Origin: Bilabrum cf. latius
Lineage: Eukaryota
Reading direction: 5' to 3'
Length of the DNA stretch: 64,000 nucleotides
NCBI GenBank assembly: GCA_965178125.1
Contig: OZ237754.1
Location: 868,001-932,000, forward strand
Made by a program: the position numbers and the translations under genes. The notes under the pieces were generated by a model. It saw only the letters and a program-made list of their open reading frames with translations. It was not told the DNA's origin and did no database searches. Positions 3 to 50,932 of this stretch are shown here, one piece after another (positions within the stretch are counted from its first letter, which is position 1; every line of letters starts with the position of its first letter).

Positions 3-3000
3 GAGGGCGATCCTTCGCGCGACGCCGAGGCGTGGGAGGACGATGCGCTGGCTGTGCTGGACGCCATGGAGGCCGACGGGGAGCCGGAGTCGAGGGACTG
101 GGACAAGTGGGCTAGGTCTGCGCAGCGGATGGAGCGGCTGCTCGAGTCACTATCACACGCGCGCAACATCCGCGGCGATCAATGCAAGACGTGTGAGTGG
201 CAGCACCGGCATACGGTGGCCAGAGCCCTTCTACTGCGAGGCGATACGGAGCGGTCCGCATTGCTGGTGGCCAAAGATGTGCAGCACACACTTGCGGCTC
301 GCAAGCTGGTCGTTCGATCACTGCTTCGTTTGCTGCGGGACATCGCGCAGGAAGCCTTCGATGCCATGCATCCTGACGCCAGTCCCCTGGTGGAATGCTT
401 GGTGCGTGTTGGTGCAGCGGAGCCGCCACGCCCCACGCCGCCAATGGCGGATGCCCCTGCATCTGGTGGGGACAGATCTTCTGGTGCTCCTGATGGGGAC
501 AGAGCTGCTGGTGCCTCTAGTGGGGACAGCACTGCTGGTGGGGCGGCTGCACCAGGGCCCGCCTCAGGGGCAGGAGCGGACCCAACTCCGCCCTCTGCTT
601 CGACCGACCAATCGACTGCACACATGAAACCGCATGATTTAGCCGTGGAGTAGGCCAAGCAAGTAGCCACCTGTCTCCGGGGCTTGGTGGTTGGGCATGC
701 ACTTGGTGATGTCGGGGCACTGGCTCTTCGAGCTGCCGACGCAATCCTGAAATATGTGCGAGAGTCGGCGAGAGCAAAGCAGCGGCAGGAACTCAAGCTG
801 CTGTTCGACCGTGGACTGGGACGGGAGGATCACGCGGCCATGGGGAAGGGCATCTGCATGTTGGCAACACCTGCCGATCACGCAGTGCTACAAGAGGCAC
901 TCTTGCCTTACCTGCGCCGGGACGTGTATAATAGCCCTGCCATCTCCGCGACCAGACGAGCAGCCATCGACGTGGGCAGGGTGTCATGCGGCCTAGCTGG
1001 CCAGGAGTGGAGGATCGGGGCGCGCCCTAAAGCAGCAGCTGGAAAGGCAGCTGCTCCACAGGCTACGGCTGCCACAATCAGCGGGGCTGACGCCATGACC
1101 TTGCTCGGAGGCGCCATGCTACGCGTAGGACCTTTTCAGGATGCCAGGCCGGCGCTGGAACCAGCTGTTCATCTGCTGTGGGGCAAGGTGCTAGCTGCTT
1201 CTGGAGGCATGGATCAGGCGCTTCTGGATCAGGATTGGGGTGCCATCACGCAGCAGCTGACCCCTAGAGGTATGCTTTCCAGTTGGGACAAGGCAATGGA
1301 GAAAATGGCACGCATGGACTCCGTTGGAACTGACCATCCTGCTGACCTCACACAAGCTGGAGAGTGCAACAGCTAGCTCCTGCCAACCTGTGACGAGCTA
1401 GTGCCACCACTCGACACCAAAGCCAACCAGATGGGACTGCCCAAGCTCTCCTTCAAAGGAATCAGTATAAGGCAGGTGCGCCGAATCGAAAAGGTCATCC
1501 TGAGGCGCGTGAGCACTTCTGTTGGAGAGAGGACTGCTGCCGACGGTGGCGCTGCTACTGGTGGATGCAGTGCTGATGCTAGCAAGAGCAAGCCATCCGG
1601 CGGCACTAGGTCTAAAGCAAAAGCCGATGCCAGCACTTCACGCTGCTCTGCGTGCAGAGAGGAGTGGGGTAACCTTGAGGTGGCCTAGGCGCTGCTGGAC
1701 CTGACGATGGCCGCTAACAGCTTGGACGAGGTGGTCGGGGCTTACGTGAATGCAATGCTGTGGCTGTTACGGGAGCTATGTATCGCGTCTCAGGACGAGA
1801 GCTATGACCCGAGACGTAGGACTGGCTCGAGTGGGAGACCGAGTGGTGACGATGCCCCAGGACCGGTGGGTGCTGCCGGTAGTGCCGAGGGTAGCGCTGC
1901 ATCAGTCAAAGGGGCTCAAGCTCCAGGAAGCGATGGTGAATCTGGAGCAGCAGATGCTTCCGAACTCGCTGCTTCAGAAGGCTCCGATGAGGGCTGGTTC
2001 AACCCGATCGTTGATGCAGTCACGTCAATGTTTGGCGCAGGAGCTGGCACAAAATCGGAGGCTAGCGGGGGCGCTGAATCGGCAGGATTTGATGGTGTTG
2101 GCAGCTCTAGAGCGTAGACCGCCAGCCTTGCGGGTGGCGACAGCAGCCTGGCATTCCGCTTGGCAGCTATCAACTCGCTCCGCTTTGGCGTGATGCACCT
2201 GGCCGATGCAATCTGCGGCACAACAGCGCTCAACAGCCACCCCGGCCTGCAGATGTACGCTACCCGAGCAGCATTTGGCGCCTCAGTCGTAGCTTACCGC
2301 GCCATAGGAGGAGCTGATGGGGAAGAGGTCATCCAGCGACGGCTCAGGCAGCTCGTAGCGGCCGCTCGCCTGTGCCCCGTCTGGCGGATCCCTCCCCAGC
2401 CAGTGCATCGCATGACAGGACTTGGCGTGGCGCTATCTGCTACCATCAAGTCGTGGACTAAGGTGCTTATTGCATCTCCAGAAGAGTCCCTTCCGTGCCG
2501 ATGGGACCTGCCCCACTATCTCGCGTACTAGCTTGCTGTTTCTGGCCATTGGACTGACGAAGATGAGCCCAAGCTGCCGGGAGAAGCCTGGACCGATCAC
2601 ATCGTGCCCAGAGGAGCCAGCCGTCGGTCCGAGGGACGCCCCGACTCGACTCGTGCCATGTACACGCGTCGCCTCATCGCACTAGATGCCATGCTGTCTG
2701 CTCACAAAGACAACTTCGATGCCGTCCATGCCCGATTAGCATCTCCGTTGCTCAAGCCGCCGGCTGGGCTTGGCTACGCTGGGCCTGATGCGACTCCATT
2801 CGGCCGTCTTGCGTCTGAAGACGGGTGGTCATCCGTACGTGGTGCAGAGATCAACAAGACGACCGGCCAGATCACGATCTTTGGCACGCGTGAGGCGGGC
2901 GGCAACGTCGTGTCCACAGCAGACGTAAAGGAGGCCTTGCACATCACCTCAATGTCCGACAGCCCGCTGGTATTCTCACTAGACCAGCCAGGCGCAAGAG

Positions 3001-4964
3001 CGGCAGCACACGACCCGAAAGGCAACGCATGGTCGGACCTGCTGCTGCACCGCCACCCGTTCCACGAAATGTTCTTCATGCCGAGCGAGCTTGGTGGCAC
3101 AGGGATTTTGGATACACTATTCCAGTCGGACTACCTGCTGAAGCAATTCAGCACTGGTGTTGAAGTCAGTGCGCTGCCACCTTTTATGTGCAGACCCATG
3201 ACGTCCCTGCTGGAAGGGCTGCCTGACGATTTGCGCCACACCTTGCGCCCTTGTCACGAGCGAGGGGAGCGCAAGCACCGCACGTCCAGGTTCTGGCTTG
3301 AGCCGGGCAGCATGAATACAAAGGTCGTTGAAACGGAAGATACCGTGCGAATTTACGTGGAGGACGTCCCAATCTTGGTCAAGACACACGCGATGGCTTT
3401 CGGAAAGGACGGCGAGCTGGAGGATGCAGCGGACGGAGACGAGGACCCTGACTCACCAGAGAACACCTTCGCCAGGGATATGACGGCAAGCATGCCCCAG
3501 CTGCAGCAGTACTTCCTTCATCTCCGTCGCCTGCCGGAGGTGTTTAAGCTGTGGCTGCTGGCGAGGCAAATGGTTCGAATTGCTGCACAGTTCGACGGTG
3601 TCACGCCTGCAGAGCTGGACACGGCGGGCATCCGTGCGCGAGTGGAGACCAGCATCAGCGAGACCAACGGCCGGGTACGCTCGCAAGCCAACGAAATGGC
3701 GAGGAAAATTCGCGCTGACCCCCAGCTGCGCAAGTACCCGCGCTCGCAGGACGAGGCTGAGGTTAGCCGGGTGGTCGATGCACACCTGCAGCGGCATGCC
3801 CGCCATCAGTTCGTGCCGCAGAGCGTGCGAGATGAGCTCAAGCAGCAGGTTCGCACACAGCTTGAGGCGGCGGACGCGACAATGCTAGATGAGCTCGCTG
3901 CCGCGGTCGCTGGGATCGGAGGCAATGCTGCCAGTGCCGCTGACAAGGCTCGCGCTCGCCAATTGCTGCTGGACCTGATCACCTCCTGGCAGATTTACGC
4001 AGAGAGCAGGACCATGGCGCTGGCTGACTTCATCTACGATCGAATTAGGCCCAAACAGACCGTCGATGAAGTCGTCGCAGAAAGCACGACGCGCCTTGCC
4101 GGGGAATTGTAGCGCATCGGACAGAAGATAAACGAGTAGCTCGGGGCAGTGGGGGTGACGATATCCTCCAAAGCTGTGAGACAGAGTTCAGCAACCCCCC
4201 CGGTCACTGGTCTGTGGGTCCCTGCTGCAGTGGGCAAGACAGGGTCTGGAGTCGTCATCGGCGGGGTGAGAGGCGTCCCCGCGAGCGGACGAATTGGCTC
4301 CACCGCCGCAGCCGTCGGTGGAGCTACACAGTTCGGTCTCGGTGGCGGAGGCGCCCCTGCACTTAAAACTGCTTGCACCCGCACGCCTGCTAGCGGAGCC
4401 CTACCATCTGTCATGCGATCGGCCTATCGCCAGGTCATTGGTGGCGGCGGGGGAGGAGTTGGAGGTAGTGGCGGTGGTGGCGTTGGAGGTGGTAGTGGTG
4501 GTGGCGGTGGTACCAGGGGCCCCAACATACCGCTCAACTATGACTACTTTAGGCAGGCATACCCTGGATCCAGGGTGCTCTCAACAACCACCGATACTCA
4601 CCATCGCATGACATACGCCTAGGATACCGAGTCACGGTTCGCCAACGCCACTGTCTTCGAGACGCGAGTTGAATCCACTTCTCGGCACAGAGCATCTTAG
4701 ATGCGAGAGGCGACGAGGAGCCTTCGAGAACACATAGAAAATGTCGGATGGGATCGCTTCTAGCAGAATCATGGCGTTACTTTCTCTGCAGAGCAGCAGC
4801 GGGCGATCCAGAAGGGACAAGCGCAGATCACAGACTATACCTGGGACCACAGGCTTGGTGGGCAAAACATGCGGCTGCTCCCTCGAGATCTGCACTAGAG
4901 CAGGTCCCACCAGGGGTGGTGGGGGAAAAGGTGGGGAGTTCTTGGCACCAAGAACAACCCCTGA
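3..4964 (+). CDS. Giant protein (5'-truncated by window, >1,650 aa, TAG=Gln) with DUF1598-like domain, Gly-rich linker and C-terminal WHH/HNH-like nuclease
   Basis: ORFs 54, 684, 1401, 1707, 2160, 2604 and 4149 are all in one frame, separated only by TAG (11 TAGs: 651, 1374, 1686, 2115, 2529, 4110, 4137, 4620, 4698, 4761, 4896). First TAA/TGA is TGA 4962-4964. Motifs LFQSDYLLKQFSTG, RFWLEP, FARDMT..LRRLPEVFKL and WVPAA..GGV look DUF1598-like. C-terminus reads FSAEQQRAIQKGQAQITDYTWDH..MRLLPRDLHQSRSHQGWWGKRWG. Confidence 0.8.
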
Positions 4965-5119
4965 TCCACAGGATGCAGATGTAGACAGCGCACCCCAGGA
5001 CACGCACACCGAGCGACTTGCTGCGTCTGGCCCTCTTGATCTGCGGTTCAGCCACGGGCTCGCGGAGGCAGTCAGAAGAGTGACTAATTTGGGTTGTCAC
5101 CATTACTTGAGCTTGAGAA

Positions 5120-6563: not shown

Positions 6564-7382
6564 TCACGTGCTGCCGCCTCCCCGCTTGCGCTTGCCTCCG
6601 ATCGCCGCCGACTGCCGCGCTCCCGATCCTGCCCCTCCTCCGCTGCTGCTGCTGCTGCTGCTGCTTGCAGCCAATCTTGGCTTGGCCTTGGATCTAGAGG
6701 TGCTTTCTTTCTTTTTGGCACCGGCACCAGCACCGGTGCCCTTGCTGCCTTTTTCCTTCCCTTTGCCCTTGCCCTTGCCCTTTGCCGGTGCCGGCGGCGC
6801 CTCCTGCTCGCTCAGCCCGAGCACCTGCTCGAACTCCCCCTCCCGCAGCGGAACCACCGACAGCCTGGGAAACCGGAACAGCCCGCATTCGGGCATCTGC
6901 TCCCTCAGCTCGTCGATGGTGACCCGGCGCGCCAGGCGGGCCCCGAACCTGAGGTCCACGCAGGCCCACCGGGGCTTCTCCTCCGTACTCTTCGCGTCGT
7001 AGTACGAGTGCTTCGAGTCGAACTGCGTTGGGTCCGGATAGTCCTCTCGCTCCACCGTGCAGCGGCCCACCACGCCCGGTCTTGTTCCCCGGGCAGGGTT
7101 GCTCTCGTAGTAGAGCACTCGCTGGCCCTTGCGCATCTTGCGGAGGTTGTTCTTGGCCTGATGGTTCCGGACGCCGTCCCACTCCGTGATTGTATCTTTT
7201 TCAAAATCAAAAATGGAGTATTCGGCCGGCTCCGCCTTGACGAGCCAATCGGACGCTCCATCGAACGCGCTGACCGGAGCGCCCTTGGTCTTGCTCGGTT
7301 CGTCTTTTGCTTTACCGGCATCTCTAGCACTCTCAGTCTTGCTTGTTCTACGCTTTTTGGATGGGCTAGCGACGGCCGCCAT
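6564..7382 (-). CDS. EVE-domain protein (THYN1/Thy28-like) with basic, NLS-like tails
   Basis: WLVKAEP..WDGVRNHQAKNNLRKMRKG..YYESN..PGVVG..YPDPTQFD..YYDAKS..PRW..VD is the EVE-domain signature. ATG to TGA, 272 aa. Confidence 0.9.
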   Translation of the reverse strand: MAAVASPSKKRRTSKTESARDAGKAKDEPSKTKGAPVSAFDGASDWLVKAEPAEYSIFDFEKDTITEWDGVRNHQAKNNLRKMRKGQRVLYYESNPARGTRPGVVGRCTVEREDYPDPTQFDSKHSYYDAKSTEEKPRWACVDLRFGARLARRVTIDELREQMPECGLFRFPRLSVVPLREGEFEQVLGLSEQEAPPAPAKGKGKGKGKEKGSKGTGAGAGAKKKESTSRSKAKPRLAASSSSSSSSGGGAGSGARQSAAIGGKRKRGGGST

Positions 7383-8275
7383 GAGTCTCAGCTTCTGCGA
7401 TGCGCGTTTTCAGGATTGAGGTGGGGTTCGTCTGATATGAGAAAGCATCGCATGAGTGCAAGAGCGGTATTGTGGGATCTGAGCTGTCCATGCTATTTAT
7501 TTGTATCTACTTTCGAGAATGAAACCGAAATACTTGAACTTGCGGCGAGGTACTAGGTCCACTTACATTTTCAGGGCCGCGGAAACTTCGAAAAACGAGC
7601 AAGCGCTTTAGCTGATTGGCGATCTTAGTACCCAACGTAGTCAGCAGGTCAATAAATAGGAGCGCCCTTTCAGAAGAGATACTTGCAGCTTGGTCGAAGC
7701 CTACTAGTATGGTGAGCAGAAGGCCCTCGGCGCAGTGCAAAATTCCGAATGGATTGTTCGATGCATCACCAAAGGCTTATCACTTGGTTGCTACAGTAAG
7801 CGAAGACTATTATTGACTATATTGTCTCTGGAGAAGACCACCCATGCTGTGACAACATCAACTAGGCCAAACTATCGAAGCAAGATTTGGACCTAGATCG
7901 ATCATTAGTCCCGCGATACTGCCACTGCAGTGAAGACGAGGAGGATGAGAAGCTACTGCGTACTCGTTTTGGTGCGCTAACAAGCGGCAAGGCAATCATG
8001 GTGATTAGCCGTCATAGGTACATAGCATCAGTCCCACGTACTACACGAGGCGGCCAATGGCACAGGCGCACGCAAAGCATGATGGTGACCAACAGGATAG
8101 CGCGACAGGTCAGAGCCTGCTTGGCGGCAGCATGGCAACAAGCCATGGATGTAGACGCGCGTAGGCTGCTAAAGATACTGCGGGTGGGCAAACTCGCAGA
8201 TCCAATGGCACAAGTCAGCAGTATCGAGCCACAGGTGTGCAAACCTGACGCACGCTGCACGATGCTGCTGGCAGC

Positions 8276-9161: not shown

Positions 9162-12100
9162 TCACGCGCTGCCTGACGCGGCGTCGCTAGGCACGCTCGC
9201 ATCCTTGTCCTTGCTACGTGCGGCAGGTGCAGCAGCTGAGGTGCCAGCCGCGGCCTTGGCAGCCGGGTTCACTGCCTTGGCTGTAGCGATGGCGCCGGAC
9301 CTCGCACCATTGCTGCCCTTGCTGCCGGCGGACTGGCTCCTAGGCGAGATCGCGGCGACTCCTGCTCCGCGATAGATGGCGTTCTGCGAGCGGAAGTAAC
9401 CGGTTGCAGAGGCGCCTCCTCTGGTGTTGTTCCCTGCGGTGCGGCGCTCTGAAGGGCCGACTGCACTGCTAGGCCTCGTGGCTGCGGTAGCAGCCGAAGA
9501 ACTGGCGGGATTGCTCGTCTCACTGGCAGTTGATGATGCATCAAGGGCTGCTGCATCAGGCGTGAGTTCCGCCGGCCTCCGCAAGTAGATGTACGCGGCC
9601 ATGCCCGCCACTGCCACCGCCAGCGCCACGATCGCAGCCGAGAGCCCTCCCACGATAGCAGTGGATAGCCCATCCTCGTCACCATCGGAGCCGTTGTTGT
9701 TGTTGTTGTTGTTGGTGGTGTCGATCACCCCGGAGGTGGTGCCACCATCAGTTGCAGGAGATGCTGCGGGTGACGCAGCTGCGCTTGCCTGCGGGGTGGC
9801 CGACGGACTGGCTGCGGCGTCAGCACCAGATGCTCCACTGGATCCACCGGAGCTGGTGGTACCTCCAGTATTGCCCGAGCCAGTGGTGGAGCCTCCAGAG
9901 TCGCCGGCAGCTGTGGGAGTCTGCTGCTGCTGCAGGGGCACTAGCGTACCCGTGACGCCTTGCCTGGCCTCTAGGGACACAGTAGTTGGGTCCATGCGGC
10001 GGAGGTAGGTGCCTCGTGTCCGCAGCACGCTCGCAGGGTCCTGCACCTGCCGCTTGAGCTCAGCCGTTACGGTCTCCAGGCGCGCGCCTGCCTCGCTGCT
10101 GGAGTCGGTGTCGGAGCCGAACGTGGCACCGGAAATGGGAAGCAGGGTGAAGTTCAGCCTGGCGTGCTCGCTTCCATCCGCAGCCACGCCCTCCAGCTCG
10201 ATCGTGTCGATCCGCACACGGCGAGCTGACACGAAAAGTGCCCGGCTGAGATCGGACTGCAGGTCGTTGATGAGAGCATCGGTCGCGTCGCCGTCGCCCA
10301 GGCTCAGGCTCAGGGATCCAGCGGGCAGCTGCAGCACGGTGCTTCCATCCACGCGCGCCTCGTCCTCGCACGCGAACGCGTTGCAGGCCCTCTCCTCCGC
10401 TGGCATGGGGCCGGCGATGCTGGCTTGCTGGATGCACACGTCGACAGCCACCGCGGTAGCGTCAGCACGGCTTGTTCCCTGGGCCGAGGCCCAGCTGAGA
10501 CGGGCGCAGCCCACCTCACGCACCTGCCTGCCCCCATCACACTGCGCCGTGCACTGGCCCCACTCGCCCACGGTGTAGTAGTACACGGCATCTGGGTCGC
10601 GAGGAGGTGCCTCGCAGCCAGCACCAAAGTATCCGGGCTTGCAGTGGCACTGGCCCTGCACGCAGAGCCCGCCGTTCAGGCAGGAACGCGTAGAGCACTG
10701 GTCGCAGGTGTTGCAGTCGCGCGTCTGCATTGTCACCGGGCATGCGGAACCTTCTCCGCGCGGCGCCCGCAGCACCTGCCTCTGCCTACGCTGCACGCCG
10801 TCGGAGCAGACCGCGTCGCACTCGGACCAAGGGCCCCACGGGCCTACCTGGCAGTCGGCCATGTCCGAGAGGACCTTGATGGTGGTGTCGGGCACGGCGG
10901 TCTTTACGCCTGACCGCAGCATCAGCGCGGGGATGGCGATGTGCAGGTTCTCGTCACCGTTGGGGTTGTAGTCGGGTACGGGAGGCAGAGTCACCGTGGC
11001 TCTCGTCATGCCAAAGGAGAAGCGCACGAGATCGTCGGCAGCTTGTTCCCCGTACATGATGGCGGGCTGGGCCAGCGAGTTCCAGCCCCTCGATGAGGAC
11101 TCTCTGGCGTTGATGCCCAGCAGCAACATGTTGGGTGTCATGGTCCTCTGGTTCTTGAGCGCGTCCACGTCAGCGATCGTCAGGGTCCCGGCGTTCTTCC
11201 TCGCCTCGATCTCAGCCTCAGACACAATCGTCTCGTTCAGTCCGGCCTCGGCTCTCTGCTTGGCCGCCAGCTCGGCTGGGTCCACGAATAAGTCACAGGA
11301 CAGAGTCAGCTCCAGCTACAGACCACCGCTTCGGATCTGCTCGGCGGTCACAGTGCCGTCGCTGCCGCCGAGCAACGACCCAGATGCCTGCACGGGGAAA
11401 GCGGACAGCGCCTGCACCCGGATGGTCGCCCTGAGCGCTCCCTTGGGAGCAGCGAGCCCCACGAGAATCCTGTCTGCCTCTCTATCGTACCCATCCGTCT
11501 CCCAAATCATCATGCGCTGCTCGCCGGTCTTGTCGGGGCTGTGGGAGGCCCAGTCGGAGCTCGCCGGGCCCACTGGTGGCTCGAACCGAAGCACCGGGTC
11601 ATCGGGGGAACTCCCCGCCTTTGCCACGTGCAGGAGGAGCTCCCGGGCGGAGTCTTCCTCGTCCTGATCGGCAGTCGATGCCGCCACGGTGCACATGGGC
11701 TCTGCGTCGGTCCAGGTTGAGGTCGATGTGAGTTCCCCCAGGGCCTCCAACGTGGTCATGCAGCTCTCCTTGGCCGCTTCCACAACCGCCTCCACTCGAT
11801 CGTTGCAGATGTCATTCGACACGCACTGCAGGTGCTTGCCGTGGCACTGCGTGACCGCGTTCTTCAGCTCCGCGTACTGCGGCCTGGCACCGGTGGTGGC
11901 ACCCGGGTAGGCCTCCTTGGCAGTGTGCAGGCATCCTAGCAGCACGCTGTTGCAGGCGCCCACCCTCCTCTCCGCCTCGATGGAGCACTTCCTTCCTTCG
12001 GGCTCGAAGCTCTGTGCGCGGACGCACACACCCCGTGTGGCTGCGTTGGGCTTCTCGAAGGAGAAGAAGGCGTTCTGTCCCGGTGCCAGCGCGACCTGCT

Positions 12101-24300: not shown

Positions 24301-24458
24301 CGGGGAGGACTGAGCGGCGCGAGCTGCACCAGCATCTCTGCATTGTGCTGTTTGGTTTTGCTTGTGCGGCGCTCGCTGCCTGGGCTTCCTTCGTTGACCT
24401 TGTCCGCCTTGGGCGTGGGTCAGCGGGGAGGACTGAGCGGCGCGAGCTGCACCAGCAT
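18383..24458. repeat. Tandem satellite, 123/124-bp unit, about 49 copies
   Basis: Unit ACTGAGCGGCGCGAGCTGCACCAGCATCTCTGCATT(T)GTGCTGTTTGGTTTTGCTTGTGCGGCGCTCGCTGCCTGGGCTTCCTTCGTTGACCTTGTCCGCCTTGGGCGTGGGTCAGCGGGGAGG is repeated head to tail. One-nt length variants break every reading frame. Confidence 0.97.
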
Positions 24459-31234: not shown

Positions 31235-31640
31235 TCACACCGCCCGCAGTGGGTTCGTGCTCACGAACCCGCCCGCTTCACTCTTCCCTGCTTCTACAGC
31301 CGCCTGCTTGCCAGCGGACTCCTTGGCATCCGAGCGGCAGCAGCAGCAGTACAGCAGGGCAATCGCTACGATGAGCACCACAAGCCCGCCCACCGACCCG
31401 CCGATGATCCCACCGATCCCTGCGCCCTCCTCTCCGTCATCGAGAACACCAACCTCCGTTGTACTGGGGGTAGCCTGCACCACCGTCTGGTCCTCCGTCA
31501 GCACTTCTGTCTTGATCGTCACTGACGAAGCGTCCACAGCGAGGCTAGCGGCCAGGGCAGGAGCGGCGGCCTGCAGGTCCTGCAGCAGCCCGTTGCCGCC
31601 AACAGATGAGTCGCTGGAGACGTAGGCCTGGACAGAGGCC
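31235..31640 (-). pseudogene. C-terminal fragment of a single-pass membrane protein
   Basis: GIGGIIGGSVGGLVVLIVAIALLYCCCC is a TM helix followed by a Cys cluster and short tail. No intact 5' part was found upstream in the spacer. Confidence 0.45.
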
Positions 31641-32357
31641 TATGCTGCTGCCACGTCGGTGTTCTCCCGGAAGCAGAGAGAGGAATCAATCTCGATAGCG
31701 GAGTTAGACGCACCCCCGGCCTAAAGCTCCCGCAGGGACTGCTTGAGGCCAAGGCGGCGGCCACTGGCCACCTCCCTCACATCCGTGTGATGATGACCTC
31801 ATCCGCCCCCGTGCGCTCCGCCAGCTTGGCCTTGTATGCATCGGCCAGGGTGTCGCGGAACTAGGTGGGGGTGACCCCCTGGATCTTGAGGGCAGCCACC
31901 TCCACGTAGGCACCCTTAGGCTTGACGGCAGGAGAGCACGTGTTGCGGGCACTTGCGCACACCAGCTCGCCAGCACAGTTCTCGGCCGTCTGGCAGGCAC
32001 CCGAAGCGTCTGATTTGTACCCATTTTATCGTCTCCTCCACCGCCATTTTCATGATCGTCTCCGCTGTACAGTGTACACCCCGTGGCTCCACAAAGCACA
32101 CAGCACGAAGTACGCCTCCCTCGGCCAGTGAGGGCAAAGGCTACCGCCCTACTGGGGCCCCAGCCACACAGCTCCATTCCGTCGCTCTGCGCGATGTCGC
32201 ACCCAGCCAATTGAATGGGCACTGCTTGGATTCGGTACACGAATACGGAAGGCCGGAGGTCCCCAAACCACGCGTTACTTTGCAAGTAAAGCAGATTTTC
32301 CTTTCGTCCGACGCCGCCGTAGCGTTCTACGCCATACCTCCAAAGCAAGAATAGCTG

Positions 32358-34949
32358 ATGCGCGCCCTCCTGTGTGTCATTGCAATTTTGACTGGAGCGT
32401 TAGCGTCAAAGGCCCCTTCAGGCCCACCAGATCTATCCATGTTCGATTTCGTTCAGAGTGGATCCACCCTGCCCAATCAGTCAGTACCGCTTGGAAACGG
32501 TAACTTGGCTGCAAACGTGTGGCTTGATAACCACGGGACTATCCAGCTATATGTTTCTCGCTCCGATGCATGGAACGAGGTGGGATCGGTGCTAAAAGTG
32601 GCAGCAGCATCAGTGCAACTATCGCAACCAACGATCGACGTTTCCCAAACGAATGTCACACACTCCATCGCGGACGGAACTGTTACCATCACTGATGGGC
32701 ATGTCAACGTTATAGTCTTTGCAGATTTCGACGATGACGCCGTCCGCGTGATCGCAACCGCACCAAGCACCGAGGTCGTTGGATCGATCACGCTCGAGCC
32801 CATCCGAAGCAAAGAGACCGTCAATGGTGCCTCCATGCAGGAGTGGTTTGGCTCCTCCATTTGCAACTCGAGCTATCCGGTCCGTCTGGACACCGTCCCG
32901 GACCCGGCCTCGCTTCCCGGTGTGCTGGGGGCATCGGGCGCCGCTGTCTGGCACCGCAACAGCCCCTGGGATCCCTCGGGGAACACAACCGTGTTCGTCC
33001 GCACCCTGACGTAGCAACTCATTGACCCAGAGCCGCTGCGCAAGCATGACGCGCTGTCCTCTCGCGTGGCAGCCGCTGCCGTCCTGGCCACCAACGGCGC
33101 CCGCGACGAGGAGCAGCCCAACCGGGTGACGTTCCGGAGCGGACAGGGGTCCAGCCTGGCGGCCGCAGAGGTGCTGACTGCCGTTGATGTGCTGCCGTGG
33201 TCGGGCGAAGGCCAAGATCCGGCAGCGGCATTGCTGGCGAAGGAGGCCTCGAGCAGCAACTGCTCGCAGGCGAAGGACGGGTGCCAGGCTCGGCTGGCCC
33301 GGGCCCGAGAGGGCTGGGCGGGCCTGTGGGACCGGTCCTTCGTGTCCATCCAGGAGACAGCCGGGGCGCGCTCGTCACACGAAGAAGGCTCCGAGTCGGC
33401 CGACCCCGGGGCCGGGGACGTGCTGGCCCACTACTACTGGCAGCGGTTCCTGTCGCTGGCGGGGGGCAGGCGGTCGTGGACCCCGCTCAAGTTCAACGGG
33501 GAGCTGTGGACGGTTGTGACGAGCCAAAGCCACGGGTCGCCAGATTTTCGCCAGTGGGGCGGGGGCTTTTGGTCGCAGAACACTCGTCAGGCTTTCCATG
33601 AGGCTCTCGCGAGCGGAGACGACGACGTGATCCGAGCAGGTTTCGGCATGTACCAGCAGGCTGTCCCCGTGGCGCAGGCCCGGGGCACTGCATACTGGCC
33701 GCATGGTCAGTGGCCCGGCGCGTTCTTCTTCCCGGAGACCACAACGCTCTGGGGCAGCTACGACGAGAACAACCTAGGCTGGGACTGCGGGTGGGTGCCG
33801 CCTGCCACAGCCAACTGGAGCCTGCCTTCGAATACGTATCTGCGTTACTACTATTCGGGCACGCTCGAGCTGGCCCTGATCGCGCTGGACGAAGCCGCAT
33901 GGTCGGGCGACTCCTCCTACTATGACGAGTGGGCGCTCCCTCTGGCTGACGGGGTCCTGGGGCACTACTGGAACACGTACGCAAACAGGGACCTGGGAGC
34001 CGGACCCGAGGATGACGGTCCTTTGGACATGTTCCCCGCCAACGGCTTGGAGACATACCAGTGCAAGTCGCTGCCACCGACTCGCGAGGACTGCTCCACG
34101 AACGCCGTGAACGACGTGGCCGGACTCACGAGCGTGCTCGGCCGTCTGCTCCAGCTGCCCAGCAGCATCGGATCTGCAGCCCAGCGGGCCAGGTGGACGC
34201 GCATGGCTCACCTCCTGCCCGAGCTAGCCACCGAGGAGAGCTCGGCCAGTAACCAGACCGTCTGGGCCCCGGGCAAGACCTATCCCACGAAGACAGACAA
34301 CAAGGAGAACGTGATGACCCAGGTTCTGATGCCCTACCGCATCGGCACCAAGCCAAAAGCAGACGCTGCTGCCGCCACCGCTGCTGCTGGCACTGCTAAT
34401 TCCAGGGAGCAGCGGAATGCCCGCGGCTGCCTGCCCGCTGCCGCCCTGCCAGACGCAGATGCCCTGCTGGCCATCAACAACAACACCTACAACGTGCGCA
34501 GGTTCCCCTGCAACGACGGCTGGTGCTGGGACCTCCTCGCCGCGGCCGCGCTGGGCAGGGGTGCAGAGGTGGCGGCTGACCTGCTGGAAAGAGCCAACTC
34601 GAAGAACGAGGCTTTCCCCGGAGGCTGGCCCGGATTTGCCTCGCACATGCAGGATTACGAGCCGAGCCTGGACCACTGGGCCTGGAGCCGTGTGGCGCTG
34701 CACATGATGCTGCTCCAGCCACTGGACGACGAGGGGCAGAGGATGGCGCTGTTCCCTGCGTGGGTGCCCGAGCTGTGGGACGTTTCGTTCAAGCTGAGGG
34801 GGCCGGGAAACACGGTGGTGCAGGCGCGATGCACGGGGGGCGTGGTGCAGGGCCTGAGCGTGTCGCCATCGTATCGAGCCAAGGACGTGGTGGTGCAGGG
34901 GTGCGGGGGAGGAGGCAGGACCGCGGAGGAGATCTTGCGGAGGGTGTGA
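32358..34949 (+). CDS. Secreted glycoside hydrolase, GH95/DUF5703-like (copy B, TAG=Gln)
   Basis: Near-identical to copy A. The single in-frame TAG at 33012-33014 aligns with CAG (Gln) in copy A (VRTLTQQL). Stop is TGA. Confidence 0.82.
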
Positions 34950-35812
34950 GCTCTCCATCCACTCGCATCTACTCGGCCCGAGGCAGAACTACCATGACGA
35001 TCCGTTGAACGCGGCGCGTGGAGTCTTCCTCCCCCGCTGGGATGCGTAAGCGTAGAGGAGGGCATCGGATTGGGGAAGCAATGAAGGCCGATCTGGGAAG
35101 ATGCGGGCCATGTTTAAAGTCATATCGTTACATGCAATTATCATCATCTTCGAGATCTCACAATGGACCCTGGTCCACAGCTTAATCTCTGTGGCACTCA
35201 TCCATCCTGATCGAGACTTCCAAGTTCACGTAGATGGTCCAGCAACACCTATGCCCTGCCATGGTGAGGTCGTGGTGCAGCTGGAGCTCCTGCATCCTCG
35301 AGCTCGATGTCTTGAGGAGGTGCTTCGCCAGGGCCAGCAGCTGCGACTGCTCCTCACTGGACTCCACTCTGCGCGTTGAGTGCGACCGGCATTACTCCCT
35401 GCTGCTATGTGGCTATGAGGCCCAATCCAAGCTTCCGGAATTAGAATCTAAAGATCAGACCGGGATTCCAGAATCCGATCTGATCTGGACGCAGTCGGGG
35501 GTCGTGAACTCATTCAGGTCGCATTCGATTCATTGCGACACAAACACTTAGACCACAATGCCTGGTTCCTCTTGCCTACCCAATGTATCCAGTAGATCGG
35601 CTGGCACCGACCACTCATGCGCAAGACGGCTGCTGGGCCAAGAGACAGCACGATCCAGGGAAAGACTCCTAGACACTAAATCCAGACTAACGCCGAAGGA
35701 AACCCGACTGCCCTTATGACTACGCCACCCAGGCAAGTGGCGCACAAGAGTTCGGCTTATATGATGCCGTCACAATGCTGCAGGCGTCGCAATCGTCCGG
35801 AATAAGGATGCT

Positions 35813-38800
35813 TCACGCACTCCCAGACGCAGCTTCACCAGGCGCAATTACTTCCTTGTCCTCACCGCCGCCGCTGCTGGTTGACCTCCTCTTGGGCGAG
35901 ATTGAGGCGGCTCCTGCTCCGCGATAGATGGCGTTCTGCGAGCGGAACTCACCGGCGGGAGAGGCGCCTCCAGCGGTAGCCCCCTCGATGGAGGCGGCAC
36001 CCCGACGGTTCAAGGGGTCCACAGATTCATCAGGCGAAATCGGTGCAAGTTTAGCCGAGGCGCCTACTTGCGTGCTCGCAGCATCAGTTGACAATTCATT
36101 AGTGGCGGCAGAGTCAGGCGTGGGTTCCGCCTGCCTCTGCTAGTAGATGTACACGGCCATGGCTGCGACTGCCACCGCCAGCGCCACGATCGCAGCCGAG
36201 AGCCCTCCCACAACAGCAGAGCTCATACCGTCATTACCATTGGAGCCGTCGTCGGTGCTGTTGTCGTCGATGATGCCAGAGGTTGTGCCACCATCAGTAG
36301 CAGGAGCAACTTCGGGTGATGTGGCAGCGGCTGCCTGCGGGCTGGGCTGCGGGCTGGCTGCGGTGCCTGCATCGGACGACCCAGGAGATCCACCGGAGCT
36401 GGTGGAGCCGGTGCTGCCCGAGCTAGTCCCTGATCCACCGGTGGATGGTGAGGTCTGCTGCTGCTGCTGCAAGGTCACGATTGTCCCTGTGACGCCTTGC
36501 CTGGCTTCGAGGGACACAGTAGTTGGGTCCATGCGGCGGAGGTAGGTGCCGTAGGTACGCAGCACGCTCTCAGGGTCCTGCAGCTGGTTCTCGAAGTGGG
36601 ACACCACGGTCGCCATGCGTGCCCCGTCGGCAGTCTCCACGGTCTCGCTGTTGTCGTAGTCCCCGGTGTCAGTCGCAGAGATGGGCAGGATCGTGAAGTT
36701 CAGCCGAGCGTGCTCGGCGCCATCACCGACTGAATCCACGCCCTCCAGCTGAAGGCTGTCTACGCGCACGCGCCGCCCAGCGATAAAGAGGGTCCTGCTG
36801 AGGTCGCCCCTGATGTTGCTGATCATCGCATCAATCACGTTGGCGTCGCCCACGCTGTGAGTTAGGGTGTCCAGCGGCAGCTTCAGCACCACGGTGCCTT
36901 CCACGCGCGGCTCGCCAGCGCACGCAAACGCGTTGCATGCCCGATCCTGCAGAGGTGTAGACCCGATCACGTCCTCCTGCCTGTAGCATTCACCCAGTGG
37001 CACGGTTGTAGTATCCGCCTGCGTGGCGCCAGGAGCTGCCGTGGGACCGAGGGAAGCGCACTGCACCCGACGCACCTGCCTGCCTCCTCCGCACTCAGCG
37101 GTGCACTGGCTCCACTCGCCCACGGTGTAGAACAGCACATCGTCGGGGTCGCGAGGAGGCGCATCGCAGCCAGCGCCAAAAAAGCCGGGCTTGCAGTGGC
37201 ACTGGCCCTAGATGCAGATGCCGTCGTTCTTGCACGACACAGCCGAGCACTGGTCGCAGGTGTTGCAGTCGCGCGTCTCGAGAAGCACCGGACATGCCGC
37301 ACCCTCCCCCCTTGGAGCTCGAAGCACCTGCCTCTGCCGGGTTTGTGTTCCCTCGGCGCACACTTCATCGCAGTCGGACCATGGGCCCCACGGGCCAACC
37401 TGGCAGTCGGCCATGTCTGACAGCACGGACACATGAACGTCGGGTACCGATGTGTCAACGCCTGACCGCAACATGAGACCAGGGATGCGGATCTGCAGGT
37501 TCTCGTCCCCGTTGGGGTTGTAGTCAGGCACGGGAGGCAGGGTCACCGTAGCTCTCGTCATGCCGAAGGAGAAGCGCACAAAAGGAGATGCGCCAGGCGC
37601 GCTGTCTCGAAGCAAGATCGATGGTTGCGCCAAGGAGTTCCATCCGCTGGTTGACGTCTCCCTTGCCTGAATGCCCTTGATGAGCATGTTGGGCGAGATG
37701 GTGCGCGAGTTGACCATAGTGTCGATGTCAGCGATGGTGACGTTGCCGCTGTCAATGAGCCGTTCGAACTCTTCGCCCGTCATGGCCGCGCTGGGAGGCA
37801 AGCCAAGCTCTTGGCGGCGCCTCTCCTTCAGCTCCTTGGGGTCAACGAACTGGTCGCAAGATAGGTCCAGCTGCAGCTCCAGCCCGCCCGTCCTGACTTG
37901 CTCGGCGAGCACAGTGCCACCATCCCCACCCAGCATGCTACCACTAGCAAACACAGGGAAGGCAGAGAGCGCCTGCACCTGCAGAGTGGCTTGCACTGCG
38001 GCGGCTGGCGCCGTCAGACCGATCAGAATCCTGTCAGCCTCATCGTCATACCCGTCACTCTCCCATATCAGCATTCGCTATTCTCCGGTTCTATCAGGAG
38101 TTTGTGAGGCCCAGTCGGACGTCTCGGGACTGACAGGGGGCGAGAACCGGAGCACTGGGTCATCGGCGGACCGCCCCGCACGCGCTACGTGCAGCAGCAC
38201 CTCCCGCTTAGACACCATGGCATCACTCGCATCCACGCTCGACATGGTCACGTTTGCCGTGCACTGGGACTCGGCGTCTTCCCACGTGGCGTTGAGCGGC
38301 AGCGCACCGAGGGCCACAAGCGTCTGCCTGCACTCGTCTTTCGCAGCCTCAACAGCCGCACTCACGCGCTCGTTGCACACGTTCTTCTACACGCATGCGA
38401 TGTGTTCCGCGTGGCAGCCGGAGGCTGTGCGCGTGAGATTGGCCAGCGCCTCTCCCCCCGCTGCCACAGCACCTTCGTTTTCAGCCCTTGCCACGTGCAG
38501 ACAGCCCAGCATCCCGCTGTTGCAGGCACTCACCTCGCGCTCGGCTTCGATGGAGCATTTAATCTCTGTCGGAGCACGGCTTCTCGCGACTAGGCAAACG
38601 CCCTTGGTGGCTGCGTTGGGCTTCTCAAAGGAGAAGAAGGCGTTCTCGCCATGCTCCAGGTGCACCTCGGATTCCATCCCGCTGCGAAGCGCCTTAGAGT
38701 CAAAGTAGTTGATGTCGTACACGGTCTCCCTGCACATGTCCATGCCGCACACCTCCTGGCTGGCTGGCCTCAGCGTGCGATCGCAGAACCCCTCGTCCAC

Positions 38801-41800
38801 GGCGTGCCACTTCTGGCTGCGCTGGTCCGGGCACAGCTGCACGCGCCCGCTCTCTGTCTGCTCGAGACACGGCCCGCGCTGGGCACACAGCACCTCTCTT
38901 GACCTGACGCCGCCGCCGCAGCGGCGGCTACATGCCCGCCACTCATCAGCGTACCAGAACAGATCAGGGCATTCCTGCGTGTTGCATGGTTGGGTGGATA
39001 CGGGCGGGTCAGTGCAGTGAGCGTCCAGCACCAGCCTGCCTTTGCCTCCTCTGTTCCGGCACTCCAGCAGGCGACTCTGCTCGCCGCCGTCGCAAGGTTC
39101 ACTGCACGCGCCCCAACCAGAATCAGACCACTCGCACGTGCCCACATCGCACGCCTGCATTTCAGCGGGTCTGAGTGCCTCGTTGCACAGCGCCGAGTCC
39201 ACCACCAGCCCGCTCTGGGTCTGGCACCATACCGCTCTGGTCTGCTCCCCAGTGCCGCACTGCACGCTGCACTCTTTCCAAGCAGTGGAAGCCCACTCGT
39301 ACGTGTCGCAGACCCCTTCCACTGATAGACTACCTGCAAGCATGATCTGGAAATGAGCATCATCCCCAATCTTGTTCTGGCCGTCCACCGCAATGTAAAG
39401 CTCTTCCTCGTTGTACGCGCAGTTGGGCACGCTGAATGTGCGGGTGGCTGACGTGTCTTCAGCGTCCGCCATGCCGGGTGCGGCGGGTGCATCGGCACGA
39501 ACGCGCACTTTGTACGCAGCATCGCTAGGCTGGCCCATGGTGGTGATAGCAGCCACTGTGATGAGCATGTCTGACCTGGCAGGGAGCACCAGCCTCAGGT
39601 GCGTTGTGTCCTGCCCATCCGTGCTGACCACGCCGCACTCGCGCGATGCAACGTCACCAACAGCTACGCTACAGTTGACCATCCGCTGCCAGCGGCCCTG
39701 GTCAAAGCGGTCGAGTGGCACGTCGAAGATCCACGAGGCGTCTGCGTCCTGCAAGCGCCGTCCTTCGTGCCTATCAAGATGCAGCTGCTGCAACTCGCGA
39801 TGAATCTTTGTCAACTCCGGGTGGGTCTGCGCTGCCCGCCTCTGCTTCCAGCGCTCGCCGGTACCTGGCTGCACCCGCACCCTGTGATCAGTGGGCATGA
39901 GGGAGCGTCCGCTCTTGAGAGCCTCGGGCTCTTGGAGCATCTGCTTGATGGAATTGAGGGCGTGCAGGACCCCTTGCATGATAGCTTCCTCGCGGGCCAC
40001 TTCGAGATCGGTATCGTTGACTGCGGCCTCCGCTCGGCGCCCGCCGCTCGGCGCCTCTTCAAGCCCAGTGCTCTAGCGATCGGCGCTGCTGGACCACTGG
40101 ATCGCGTCATCATACGACACCTCCAGCCCGCCTCCCCGTGTTCCCTGTCGGAAGAGAAGCTCCCCGTCCTCCACGAGGCCAGTGGCCTCCATGGAGTCAA
40201 AGGCCTGCTCCAGGGCCTGCAGCTCAGCCAGCTCCTCCGCAGACGATCGCAGGGGCTCCTCGACCACATTGGATGCCCGGCGGCCCCCCTGCGTACTTGC
40301 ATCTATGCTCAGATCTGCCGTGCTGGTTCCCGACTGCTGCTCCCGGTCGCCTGGCCGGGTAGAGTCGTGGAAGTCCGACCTCGTGCCAATGATCATCTGC
40401 CGGGCCACGTCGGAGCCGGCCAGGTATGGCCTCTCCGCCGCCGCCACGTGCCCAGGTTCGATACCCTCCACTGAGATGCCAGCCAGCCCCTGCTCCACCA
40501 CAGGGAAGTACGTGTCTCTGGCGCCTGCGTACATGCCCATCGTGGATGGGGCATCCTTGGGCGACTGCACGCGGACGTTGAAAGACTGCTCTCCGCCCTC
40601 CGACGAAGAAAACACGGACTCGGCTGCGCCCACGAAATAGTTGTACTGCTCTGAGGCAATGCTCCGCTAAGTAGTCTTGCCCTGCTCCAGGCGCTCGTAC
40701 GCCTGCAGCGAGATCTCGAATTCGGCGCTGGCCTGAGCGTACACGGCGATCCACAGCTCCTCGGTGTAGTAGGTGTCGAGGCTGGAGATCACCACCTCGT
40801 CCAAGACCCCGGCGCGCTCTTTGCTCCTCCACATCCAGTCGTTGCGCGGGAAGCTCCGAAATACGCGGTGGTGCACGTACAGGTTGGCATCCCCCACGGT
40901 GGACCGAAGAGAGATGCGGGCTGCAGACGCGGTCGATGACACATGACCACGGAAGAGGTGGTAGCCCAGTGCCGGCACTTTTCCTGCGGCAGTGCGCCCG
41001 GGGAACAAGTCGCTGATTTCCATGCCGATGACGCCCATGCTGGAGCCCATGATTGCAAGCTTGGAGGAACATGCAAACGCGCCGGGGGAATATTCCCTGC
41101 CGGTAATGAGGAGGCTCAGCACGCCGGGAGCAGTAGCGGGGTGTTGTATGGCGTCCCACAGCCCGGGATTGTCGGCTGTGGGCCACCCTTCCTCTTCCTT
41201 GCGGTTGCATCGGAGGTCGAACCCTAGATTAAGGTCCTGCTCCACGCCGTCCTCCCAGTGGGGCTCCTTCTCCACCTCGGGTACGGGCGCGTCATCGAAC
41301 TCCAGCTCGCCATACGCCTCGTCTGCCGATGCAGCCAGGAAGAGCACACCGGTGGATTCCTCTGACGTCAGCAGCATAAAGTATCTCCGCTGCCCGTCGG
41401 TTACGTCGGTCTGGTTGCCCGCCAGTAGCGCGATGGCGTTGTAGTCCAGGATCTCCCTGGCACCCGTGGAGACCTTGATGGCGGAGCGGGCGGTGGCATC
41501 GAGCGTGCTCGAGTCATATCCCATGGACTCCAGAGTGCCGTCGTACAGCCATGGCTTGGTAAAATCGATGTCGGCGCACAGCCCCACGCTGAACGGAAGA
41601 TCAGCCTCGGCGATCCCCGGTGGCCAGTCGTAGGGCTCGACCCCTCTTTGCGACTCGATGGGATTGGCCCTGACCTGCGCGGCCTTCCCTGCCACTAGCT
41701 GCCTGAATGATGTGGCCTTGACCACGAACTCGACCTCTGCCTCGGGGTCCAAGTGCCTGGCGAACACGTACACCCGGGTGCTGGGCGTCAACCGATCGTC

Positions 41801-42961
41801 CTACCCAGTGACCATGGCGCTCATCTAAGAGTCGTAGGACCTGGTGATGGCGTACACCGATCGCATTCCCGACGGATCCGTGATGTCCTCGCCCTCTCCA
41901 TAGATTTCCAGGGACATCTTGCTGTTGCCCTGGGTCTTGGTCAGCCCCGCGTCCACCGCGTTATCTCCCTCTCGCATCAGCAGACAGCCGCGGTACCGGT
42001 TGGTGGTGTTGAGTCTGACACCGTGCCCTGGACCCGCGAAGAGGACGTGCCTCATCTGCCTGCGCACGGATCGGTCGAAGACGTGCGCGAACGGAGTCTC
42101 CCCACTGGCCTTGAGGTTGAGGCAGCTGCTCGAGCAGTCCTCTTCCAGCCGGGGCAGCTGCACGGGATCGCCAGTCGTTGGGTCGGTCTGGCACAGCTCC
42201 TCGGCTGCCAGAGTGCCGTTGCCTCCATGCGTGCGGCACTCGGCAACGCGGGTCCTCTTGCCCACGCCGCAGTCCACGCTGCACTCGGACCAGTCGCTGA
42301 TGGAGTACGCGCAGCCCTCCGTACCGCAGCTGAGCGAGATGGTGTTGGATTGAGAGCCTTGCAAGAATCGCAGCACCTTGATGTCTGCATCCTCGCTCAT
42401 GGCCTTGGAGCTTGCACCGGACAGCCGCCTGAAGCCGATCGACGAAGAGCTCGAGCCGTATCCAAGCTTAGGCGACACCGCGATGCCCATGAGCACACAG
42501 CCGATGAATCCAGCCCCATGCACTTTAAACTGAGGCACGATGGGGAACGAATAGGTGTACGGGAGTAATCCGCCGGACGGCAGCTCGAGAGGCTTGGTAA
42601 ATGGGCCAAAGCAAATGCCTTTGCATACCCGCGGGATGCCTAGCTACAGGACAATCTAGTTGATTGTGAGATGTCCATCGACCCCCATGTAGTAGTGGAT
42701 GTTCGTGTGACCATTTGCACACTCCGAAGGCCGCAGCGACATTGAAAGGTAGGGGTCAATGCTAGCGTCGAACTCCCAGTAGCCATACAGAGAAAACGTG
42801 GCCACCATGTACAGCTGGACCTTCAAATCCAGCGGGCCGGTCAAGTCAAAGCTTGGCTTGCGGGTCATGATGGTCATCGTGCGGTCTCGGATCATGCTCC
42901 ACCCAGTCCACCTTGAGTACTTCACGCCAACCGTCACGGAGTTGTCGAACCAGAAGCCAGG
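35813..42961 (-). CDS. TSP1/EGF membrane protein paralog (copy B), 5' part cut off by the virophage insertion
   Basis: Nine ORF fragments share one frame and are joined only by TAG. Collinear with copy A from PGFW.D.S.TVGV to the C-terminal ASGSA-TGA. Homology stops abruptly at 42961/42962. Confidence 0.85.
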
Positions 42962-50894: not shown

Positions 50895-50932
50895 ATATAA
50901 TAACATTGAAAATATTTTATATACCTATAGTA

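Follow-up and report, generated by a model that had tools for sequence, protein, structure and literature searches.

The 64,000-nucleotide stretch of DNA analysed here (the 64-kb window) very probably follows a code in which UAG means glutamine and UAA and UGA are terminators (NCBI table 15 type), used both by the genes of a GT-AG-intron eukaryote and by a virophage integrated beside them. We found that host and virophage genes alike use TAG as a sense codon and that TAA and TGA act as terminators. Across both gene sets, 14,532 codons contained 129 in-frame TAGs, no TAA and no TGA, and of the window's 27 ORFs with an inspectable end, a small sample, not one needed TAG as its terminator. Judged from sequence comparison, the best-fitting meaning of TAG is glutamine. 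The first-pass annotation had proposed this code for the host, and the stop counts, paralogues, outside homologues, virophage ORFs and codon inference support it. A code of this kind is rare and already described; what is new is a virophage adapted to it.

Stop triplets in the host genes

Five long host frames were identified with TAG read as sense (Table 1). The frames were trimmed to their likely coding parts (8,266 codons), which contained 28 in-frame TAGs, 0 TAA and 0 TGA, and the other five frames of the same DNA contained 577 TGA, 277 TAG and 84 TAA. The probability of all 28 in-frame host stop triplets being TAG by chance was 1.5e-15 given the off-frame proportions, and that of the TAG-only pattern was 3.5e-7 under a one-step nonsense-mutation model. 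The GC content of the host genes at codon positions 1, 2 and 3 was 0.63, 0.52 and 0.75, which fits the expectation for real coding sequence. TAGs 29978 and 32352, two codons upstream of the ATG and signal peptide predicted for genes C and D, were left uncounted. Past ~42,990, frame E runs into virophage-end sequence, where its two 5'-most TAGs are located.

The first-pass claim that TAG, and never TAA or TGA, interrupts the long host frames held for the exons (28/0/0) but not for the introns. Each putative intron of gene B, upstream of its long frame, holds one in-frame TGA (17250 and 16671), so "never TGA" is true of exons only. The host genes had also been said to end in TGA, which was the case for all six terminators (genes A-E and the EVE-domain gene); TAA as a terminator was seen on virophage genes only.

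The GC-rich host part (~61% GC) has a low coding density and a 6-kb satellite with a unit of 123-124 bp. It encodes predicted secreted TSP1/EGF membrane adhesins of ~2,800 aa with putative GT-AG introns, and the C-terminus of the gene A product shows a weak HNH/WHH nuclease-like resemblance. The 5' part of gene E has been removed by the virophage insertion, and 10 of the 28 host TAGs come from this truncated gene.

Table 1. Features of the 64-kb window, with in-frame TAG positions or counts and terminators
Feature	Coordinates	Strand	Long frame with TAG as sense	Description	In-frame TAG	Terminator
Host gene A	3-4964	+	3-4964	1,653 codons; open at window 5' end	11: 651, 1374, 1686, 2115, 2529, 4110, 4137, 4620, 4698, 4761, 4896	TGA
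Host EVE-domain gene	6564-7409	-		PF01878, E 2.2e-40	0	TGA
Host gene B	9162-17831	-	9162-16670	Predicted secreted TSP1/EGF-repeat membrane protein	17388, 15993, 12366, 11316	TGA
Gene B putative exon	17831-17300	-		ATG and signal peptide		
Gene B putative intron	17299-17186	-		GT-AG, 114 nt		
Gene B putative exon	17185-16775	-				
Gene B putative intron	16774-16652	-		GT-AG, 123 nt		
Gene B putative exon	16651-9162	-				
Host gene C	27383-29974	-	27383-30241	Hydrolase-like, DUF5703_N family	28796, 28148, 28052	TGA
Host gene D	32358-34949	+	31926-34949	Hydrolase-like; inverted duplicate of C, 91% amino-acid identity	33012	TGA
Host gene E	35813-42988	-	35813-43276	Paralogue of B, 58% amino-acid identity	10: 36140, 37208, 38078, 38387, 40073, 40667, 41801, 41825, 42644, 42656	TGA
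Mavirus-like virophage, integrated	~42,990-64000			AT-rich, ~40% GC; extends past window end		
Virophage rve integrase	47155-48366	-		rve, 1.7e-19	10	TAA
Virophage minor capsid (penton) protein	52553-53461	+		PDB 6g41, E 5e-15	2	TAA
Virophage major capsid protein	53493-55220	+			9	TAA
Virophage primase-helicase	61578-63998	+		DUF5906, 5e-12; open at window end	13	

The integrated virophage

The 22 virophage ORFs (6,266 codons) contained 101 in-frame TAGs, 0 TAA and 0 TGA. The 21 complete ORFs ended in TAA (15) or TGA (6), and one was open at the window end, indicating that TAA, but not TAG, serves as a stop. The probability of this TAG-only pattern was 3e-65 given the off-frame proportions and about 5e-53 under the nonsense-mutation model. 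CAA was the commonest glutamine codon of the virophage (179), and TAG had a 29% share. Under the standard code, TAG interrupts every core gene of the element.

The major capsid protein (MCP) matched Pfam MCP_V20_C (3.8e-15), PDB 6g45 (1.1e-33) and PDB 3j26 (capsid protein V20, 1.8e-9); the 6g4x entries we take to be mavirus proteins. A candidate packaging ATPase gave sub-threshold matches (ATPase_2 9.6e-5, Pox_A32 0.0047), and the name of a candidate cysteine protease, which had no family match, rests on its position. One junction, the left one near 42,990, falls inside the window, where a GC step and a depth step mark it.

TAG sites in paralogues, homologues and short-read contigs

We aligned 17 coding TAGs to residues of the paralogous proteins. 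The results showed Q (CAG) at five of them, A at three, R at two, and S, K, E, N, L, G and T at one each; in the ten cases where 14 or more of 20 neighbours were identical, glutamine stood opposite TAG five times. The first-pass annotation had named 33012, 28148, 37208, 38078 and 41825 as sites where TAG faces glutamine in the other copy, and each was confirmed as an in-frame TAG opposite CAG. Among outside homologues at hydrolase C site 28148, Q was present in 7 of 12 database homologues and was the commonest residue among metagenome homologues, mostly of 25-31% identity (34 of 80), and the 80 distant homologues at hydrolase D site 33012 carried L (26), H (16), E (10) and Q (5). At integrase TAG column 70, 14 of 20 homologues had T. 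The homologue alignments run past the TAGs as far as the C-termini.

The dN/dS values were 0.39 for C/D and 0.34 for B/E, indicating that these genes are under constraint. In DNA-type short-read contigs from four runs in three studies, the TAGs were unchanged wherever covered, among the differences listed: of the 126 contig-window differences, 40 were listed, and none fell on a TAG. Runs X1 and X4 covered eight of the ten gene E TAGs with no differences, X5 covered four of them, and contigs of run X6 covered TAGs 28052 and 28148.

Codon inference from protein profiles

We performed a Codetta-style profile test on 27 TAG match columns (MCP 9, integrase 10, hydrolase C 3, hydrolase D 1, helicase 4), leaving out nine helicase TAGs in insert states. 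Glutamine gave the best log-odds over the 27 columns (19.43 nats), followed by K (9.85), N (7.76), R (7.20) and E (7.13). It was the top assignment in four of the five protein sets; taken by itself, the helicase set placed N and E slightly above it. As a control, the standard meaning was recovered for 58 of 61 sense codons. The score per column was 0.70 nat for TAG, 0.72 for CAA and 0.79 for CAG. True lysine codons scored 45-57 nats for K and 20-28 for Q, so a lysine meaning of TAG would have shown. On the profile inference and the sense-codon control, TAG as Lys, Glu or Leu was rejected. Two near-identical database proteins, P0028 (98%) and P0004 (80%), were kept out of the profiles and of the glutamine evidence; the translation of P0028 seems to have followed a convention of placing Q at TAG, and that of P0004 possibly did likewise. 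Some residual circularity may come from database homologues translated in this way.

Possible decoding mechanism

By analogy with PMC5304391, a tRNA-Gln with anticodon CUA would decode UAG, and eRF1 would have lost efficient UAG recognition while retaining that of UAA and UGA; the available text of that paper states that a CUA anticodon pairs with UAG and not with UAA. The virophage, integrated beside gene E, would share the host translation machinery and be adapted to its code. Within the 64-kb window, ARAGORN and Rfam detected no tRNA genes, including no suppressor tRNA gene in the virophage part, and Rfam detected no other RNA families. That TAG reading is due solely to a suppressor tRNA supplied by the virus was rejected because the host genes carry TAG too.

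Comparison with known codes and virophages

The rarity of UAG-only reassignment, which the first-pass annotation had described as known in Iotanema and some ciliates, agrees with the available text of PMC11687900 and PMC5304391. The nuclear code of Iotanema spirale (Fornicata) has UAG as glutamine and UAA as the main stop; common to it and the present DNA are the change of UAG alone to glutamine, with UAA and UGA terminating, and the predicted mechanism of a tRNA-Gln(CUA) and an eRF1 with weakened UAG recognition (PMC5304391, available text). The same text presents Iotanema as an anaerobic endobiotic metamonad with transcriptome data. Unlike Iotanema, the present DNA has ~61% GC, GT-AG introns, TSP1/EGF adhesin genes and a mavirus-like virophage.

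In ciliates, the macronuclear genome is typically rich in AT and its introns are very short. The present DNA is GC-rich, and its 64 kb form one contiguous stretch that includes a satellite, long genes and putative introns of 114-123 nt; nothing points to a ciliate affinity. The ciliates Hartmannula sinica, Trochilia petrani and Protocruzia tuzeti share its codon table, reading UAG as glutamine and UAA as a stop (table 15), on evidence of a similar sort, namely internal UAG at Gln-conserved columns (PMC11687900, available text). Codes of table 6 type, in which UAR means glutamine, are listed there for many ciliates, Hexamita, Ulvophyceae, Streblomastix and Amoeboaphelidium (PMC11687900). These codes read TAA as glutamine, whereas here TAA never occurs in frame and ends 15 of the 21 complete virophage ORFs; code 6 was rejected on these counts.

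Endogenous mavirus-like virophages (EMALEs) have been described in Cafeteria burkhardae (PMC8547959), and virophages in Halocafeteria seosinensis, whose genome has 47% GC (bioRxiv 10.64898/2026.07.28.741278), compared with 61% here. Like those elements, as far as the available portions of the two reports describe them, the present one is lower in GC than the protist genome around it and encodes an rve integrase, together with an MCP and penton resembling PDB 6g45 and 6g41. In-frame TAG goes unmentioned in these portions, and "genetic code", "stop codon" and "UAG" occur 0 times in the available Halocafeteria text. Viral genes full of in-frame TAG as glutamine are also found in TAG-recoded crAss-like phages (code 15; PMC9523058, available text). 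The code of those phages departs from that of their host, whereas here the host's own genes carry in-frame TAG.

Alternative explanations

TAG might mean something other than plain glutamine, either as another residue or with a terminator role, but we consider this unlikely. Lysine was the second-best assignment, the helicase set on its own slightly favoured N or E, and TAGs 49268, 56126 and 61161 sit within a few codons of a stop; against this, glutamine led by 9.6 nats overall and was best in four of five sets, the lysine control separated the two residues, and no ORF required TAG as its terminator. The inspectable terminators number only 27 (6 host and 21 viral), so TAG may have a context-dependent dual use. 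Another reading concerns the source of the GC-rich 43 kb. Giant virus genomes can receive virophage insertions, and there are giant viruses with high GC and introns; instead of cellular nuclear DNA, the 43 kb could be part of a GC-rich giant virus genome hosting the virophage. In that case the code would belong to a virus-host system and would not be demonstrated for nuclear genes of a host. This is very improbable, as no giant-virus hallmark families were found among the host-side proteins, and the host side is sparse in coding, carries the satellite, and has the intron-bearing TSP1/EGF adhesins, an EVE-domain gene and a GC3 of 0.75.

It is hardly conceivable that the code is standard and the TAGs arose by nonsense mutation as the genes decayed, or through errors of sequencing or assembly, although TAG and CAG are one transition apart and the virophage-truncated gene E is among the genes richest in TAG. 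Decay or error would leave all virophage core genes broken and would have to produce TAG alone at every in-frame stop (nonsense-model P: host 3.5e-7, virus 4.8e-53). There were no frameshifts, dN/dS was 0.34-0.39, and the TAGs recurred in contigs of three studies, among the differences listed. The counts refute pseudogene decay and sequencing error, and the dN/dS values and the short-read contigs also argue against them.

Significance of the code

A change of meaning nearly always affects UAG and UAA jointly. Few lineages treat the two differently, and every such lineage offers a natural experiment in how eRF1 and a CUA-anticodon tRNA can separate near-identical stops (PMC5304391 and PMC11687900, available text). 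We think it possible, though somewhat short of probable, that the glutamine reading of UAG with UAA as a stop arose here independently and is so far unreported, the organism being a free-living protist with GC-rich DNA and introns that belongs to neither the ciliates nor the fornicates, and its virophage the first shown in a variant nuclear code. If true, this implies that the helper giant virus is likewise translated in the UAG=Gln/UAA-stop code. The integrated virophage shows that mobile viruses follow the code of their host, and for the virophage, as for any giant virus that it parasitises, the code serves at once as barrier and as host marker. The case is useful because a genome sequence exists, beyond transcripts, and because gene models are wrong under the standard code; a standard-code annotation would call every long gene here in pieces.

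Relatives of the host and virophage proteins

The 64-kb window contains no marker gene for the stramenopile-like lineage that the first-pass annotation had suggested. The nearest ESM Atlas clusters to the central part of protein B were of unnamed eukaryotic proteins, with Haptophyta and Oomycota labels and a recognition value below the reliability mark. The only named eukaryotic homologue of the hydrolases was a choanoflagellate transcript with 33% identity, which carries no lineage signal. A literature search, to which supplementary files did not belong, returned no report tying UAG as glutamine to a virophage-bearing or stramenopile host. No relatives of the virophage MCP, integrase or helicase were confirmed in viral_contigs, and an exact 35-mer of the MCP gene had 0 matches in metagenome_contigs. 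The protein database contains fragments of 80-84 residues from related capsid genes.

TAG codons in host and virophage reading frames

Our results showed that TAG is read as sense in both cellular and virophage genes, with glutamine as the residue that fits best, and that TAA and TGA are terminators. All inference was based on the 64-kb window together with outside homologues. Under the standard code the long host frames were fragmented, and reading TAG as sense opened five multi-kb frames, genes A to E (table below). When these were trimmed to their likely coding parts (8,266 codons), 28 TAG, 0 TAA and 0 TGA triplets were found in frame, in line with the claim of the first-pass annotation that only TAG interrupts these frames; its statement that host genes end in TGA was borne out in all six (A to E and the EVE-domain gene). 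The GC content at codon positions 1, 2 and 3 of the coding parts was 0.63, 0.52 and 0.75, which is the signature of real coding sequence. The dN/dS values were 0.39 for C versus D and 0.34 for B versus E, indicating that the genes are constrained.

Coordinates of features in the window
Feature	Position	Strand	Remarks
Frame A	3-4964	+	open with TAG as sense
EVE-domain host gene	6564-7409		PF01878, E 2.2e-40
Frame B	9162-16670	-	open with TAG as sense
Putative intron 2, gene B	16774-16652		123 nt, phase 1, multiple of three, in-frame TGA
Putative intron 1, gene B	17299-17186		114 nt, phase 1, multiple of three, in-frame TGA
Tandem satellite	18,383-24,458		period 123-124 bp, ~49 copies, 97% matches
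Frame C	27383-30241	-	open with TAG as sense
Frame D	31926-34949	+	open with TAG as sense
Frame E	35813-43276	-	open with TAG as sense
Fused virophage ORF	44,990-47,044		684 residues; TAGs 45887 and 46436 join three standard-code ORFs

We compared these counts with two expectations. The five other frames of the same host DNA contained 577 TGA, 277 TAG and 84 TAA, and given these proportions the probability that 28 of 28 in-frame stops are TAG was 1.5e-15. A one-step nonsense-mutation model, the appropriate null if the genes were decaying, was built from one-step paths weighted by the genes' own codon counts with a transition:transversion ratio of 4:1 per path. It expected 59% TAG in the host, so that the observed all-TAG outcome had P = 3.5e-7. 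For the virophage, read with TAG as sense, the corresponding value was P = 4.8e-53: its 22 ORFs (6,266 codons) contained 101 TAG, 0 TAA and 0 TGA in frame, and they ended in TAA (15) or TGA (6), with one running off the window edge. These ends agree with the earlier proposal that TAA and TGA remain stops. A code in which TAA also means glutamine was refuted by the virophage, where CAA was the commonest glutamine codon (CAA 179, TAG 101, CAG 73), so that a glutamine TAA would be expected frequently in frame; TAA was instead absent in frame and the main terminator. On this point the AT-rich virophage part is decisive and the GC-rich host genes cannot be. The share of TAG among glutamine codons was 28.6% in the AT-rich virophage, against 7.8% in the GC-rich host genes; the high virophage share fits long residence in hosts in which TAG is glutamine.

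Presence of the TAGs in public sequencing runs

Gene E was partly present in six public runs, with 98% of sampled words in four. Short-read contigs from runs X1 and X4 (one study) covered 8 of the 10 gene E TAGs with 0 differences; those from X5 (a second study) covered four gene E TAGs as well as the virophage's left part, and those from X6 (a third study) covered the TAGs at 28052 and 28148. The first-pass annotation had proposed a check for CAG at the TAG sites, and none of the 40 base differences listed, of 126, altered a TAG. As the best-matching runs may be the window's own source, this agreement mainly excludes assembly artefacts. At position 46,534, in the methyltransferase part of a virophage ORF and off any TAG, the window has T and X1, X4 and X5 have A.

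The residue encoded by TAG

In the paralogue alignments, 17 coding TAGs faced a residue, and five of them (33012, 28148, 37208, 38078 and 41825, the in-frame sites named in the first-pass annotation) faced CAG (Gln). The other 12 faced A (three), R (two) and S, K, E, N, L, G and T (one each); in well-conserved surroundings, glutamine was faced at 5 of 10 sites. Outside homologues were then aligned to queries in which every TAG was masked as X. Among the integrase homologues (24 matches, 20 aligned), column 164 showed Q in 11 of 20, column 141 R in 14 and Q in 5, and column 70 T in 14. Among 12 hydrolase homologues, Q stood in 7 at 28148, and at 33012 Q stood in 5 and L in 4; in 80 further metagenome homologues, most at 25-31% identity, column 28148 held Q in 34 and R in 22, and column 33012 varied, with L in 26, H in 16, E in 10 and Q in 5.

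We then performed a Codetta-style test, in which profile HMMs were built from homologues only and match-state emission log-odds were summed over 27 TAG columns (MCP 9, integrase 10, hydrolase C 3, hydrolase D 1, helicase 4). A further nine TAGs of the helicase lay in insert states and were not scored. The sums were 19.43 nats for Q, 9.85 for K, 7.76 for N, 7.20 for R and 7.13 for E, supporting the reading of TAG as glutamine made in the first-pass annotation. Q ranked highest in four of the five protein sets, and in the helicase set N and E stood marginally above it. As a control, the same profiles recovered the standard meaning of 58 of 61 sense codons, failing for CAT (n=9), CGA and TCG. TAG scored 0.70 nats per column, CAA 0.72 and CAG 0.79. 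A database helicase (P0028, 98% identical) has Q at all TAG positions, most simply by the gene caller's convention, and an integrase (P0004, 80% identical) has Q at 7 of 10, which may come partly from the same convention. Both proteins were left out of the profiles, and neither was counted as evidence.

Relation to known codes and possible mechanism

The code itself is already known as NCBI table 15. PMC11687900 gives UAG-only reassignment to glutamine in Iotanema spirale, in Protocruzia tuzeti and twice in phyllopharyngean ciliates, matching the precedents cited in the first-pass annotation (Iotanema and some ciliates), as well as UAG to leucine in a rhizarian and UAG to serine in Scotinosphaera. 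A new facet is a virophage sharing the UAG=Gln code with its host: a literature search by topic found no report of such a code in a virophage or endogenous-virophage host. The text of a Halocafeteria virophage preprint (2026, bioRxiv 10.64898/2026.07.28.741278) has no mention of genetic codes and gives a host GC of 47%.

The decoding tRNA would have glutamine identity and the anticodon CUA, since UAA must stay unread. eRF1 would have lost efficient recognition of UAG and kept that of UAA and UGA. The same tRNA/eRF1 argument was made for Iotanema, with an eRF1 change in the GTS motif (PMC5304391). A helper giant virus, if any, would meet the same code.

Host genes and probable nuclear origin

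GC content was 55-67% over bases 1 to ~43,000 and 34-44% over 44,000-64,000. Within the 64-kb window, ARAGORN found 0 tRNA genes and Rfam 0 matching RNA families. Putative introns, a 6-kb satellite and low gene density argue for the GC-rich part being eukaryote nuclear DNA, not virus or bacterium. The two introns lie in gene B, where an ATG at 17831 with a signal-peptide-like start was found 5' of the long frame; the segments are bordered by GTGAGT...CAG and GTGAGC...CAG, respectively, their removal keeps the frame, and from sequence we read them as putative GT-AG spliceosomal introns. The satellite has a strong T-over-A skew on the + strand and gives rise to spurious long ORFs on both strands.

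B and E are paralogues, 57-58% identical across ~2,400 residues, and contain TSP1 and EGF-like repeats; a hydrophobic C-terminal stretch was read by eye as a putative transmembrane segment. C and D are inverted duplicates (27,383-34,949; 91% amino acid identity, dS 0.12); the protein they encode is hydrolase-like (DUF5703_N) and carries a signal peptide at its N-terminus. The C-terminus of A had weak, sub-threshold HNH/WHH nuclease-like matches. Summed depth was very high at 30,007-31,318, in the spacer between C and D (up to 1,054 in X4), and in a second patch at 35,255-35,910; both are probably dispersed repeats.

The integrated virophage

The AT-rich part is an integrated, mavirus-like virophage. 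Its MCP matched Pfam MCP_V20_C (3.8e-15), PDB 6g45 (1.1e-33) and 3j26 'capsid protein V20' (1.8e-9), and the adjoining ORF matched the minor capsid protein PDB 6g41 (5e-15); we take the PDB 6g4x entries to be mavirus proteins. The rve integrase, the DUF5906 primase-helicase and the Tet_JBP plus FkbM-methyltransferase ORF, as well as one GIY-YIG and one SET protein, reached the curated Pfam cut-offs. The packaging ATPase gave sub-threshold matches only, and the putative protease was named by position alone. Every core gene was fragmented under the standard code. With TAG as sense, all virophage ORFs within the window were open, and the virophage (42,990-64,000) is apparently intact, its right end lying outside the window. 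The fused ORF encodes a Tet/JBP dioxygenase domain (8e-25) and an FkbM-type methyltransferase (1.7e-7), and its N-terminal module has a diverged copy at 43,318-43,983 (-).

The similarity of E to B ends near 42,960-42,990, coinciding with the GC drop and with breaks in the short-read contigs. The virophage thus seems to have inserted into E, removing or displacing the exons at the 5' end, which would have encoded a signal peptide and ~300 residues. An open frame of 2,390 codons is left. Relative to the host gene next to it, the virophage had a summed contig depth of ~2-3x (X4) to 5-8x (X1), pointing to multiple copies or to a free form. Two public capsid fragments of 80-84 residues (P0046 and P0060) were 91% and 68% identical to capsid stretches outside TAG codons; together with the database helicase carrying Q at TAG positions, they suggest related virophages miscalled under the standard code.
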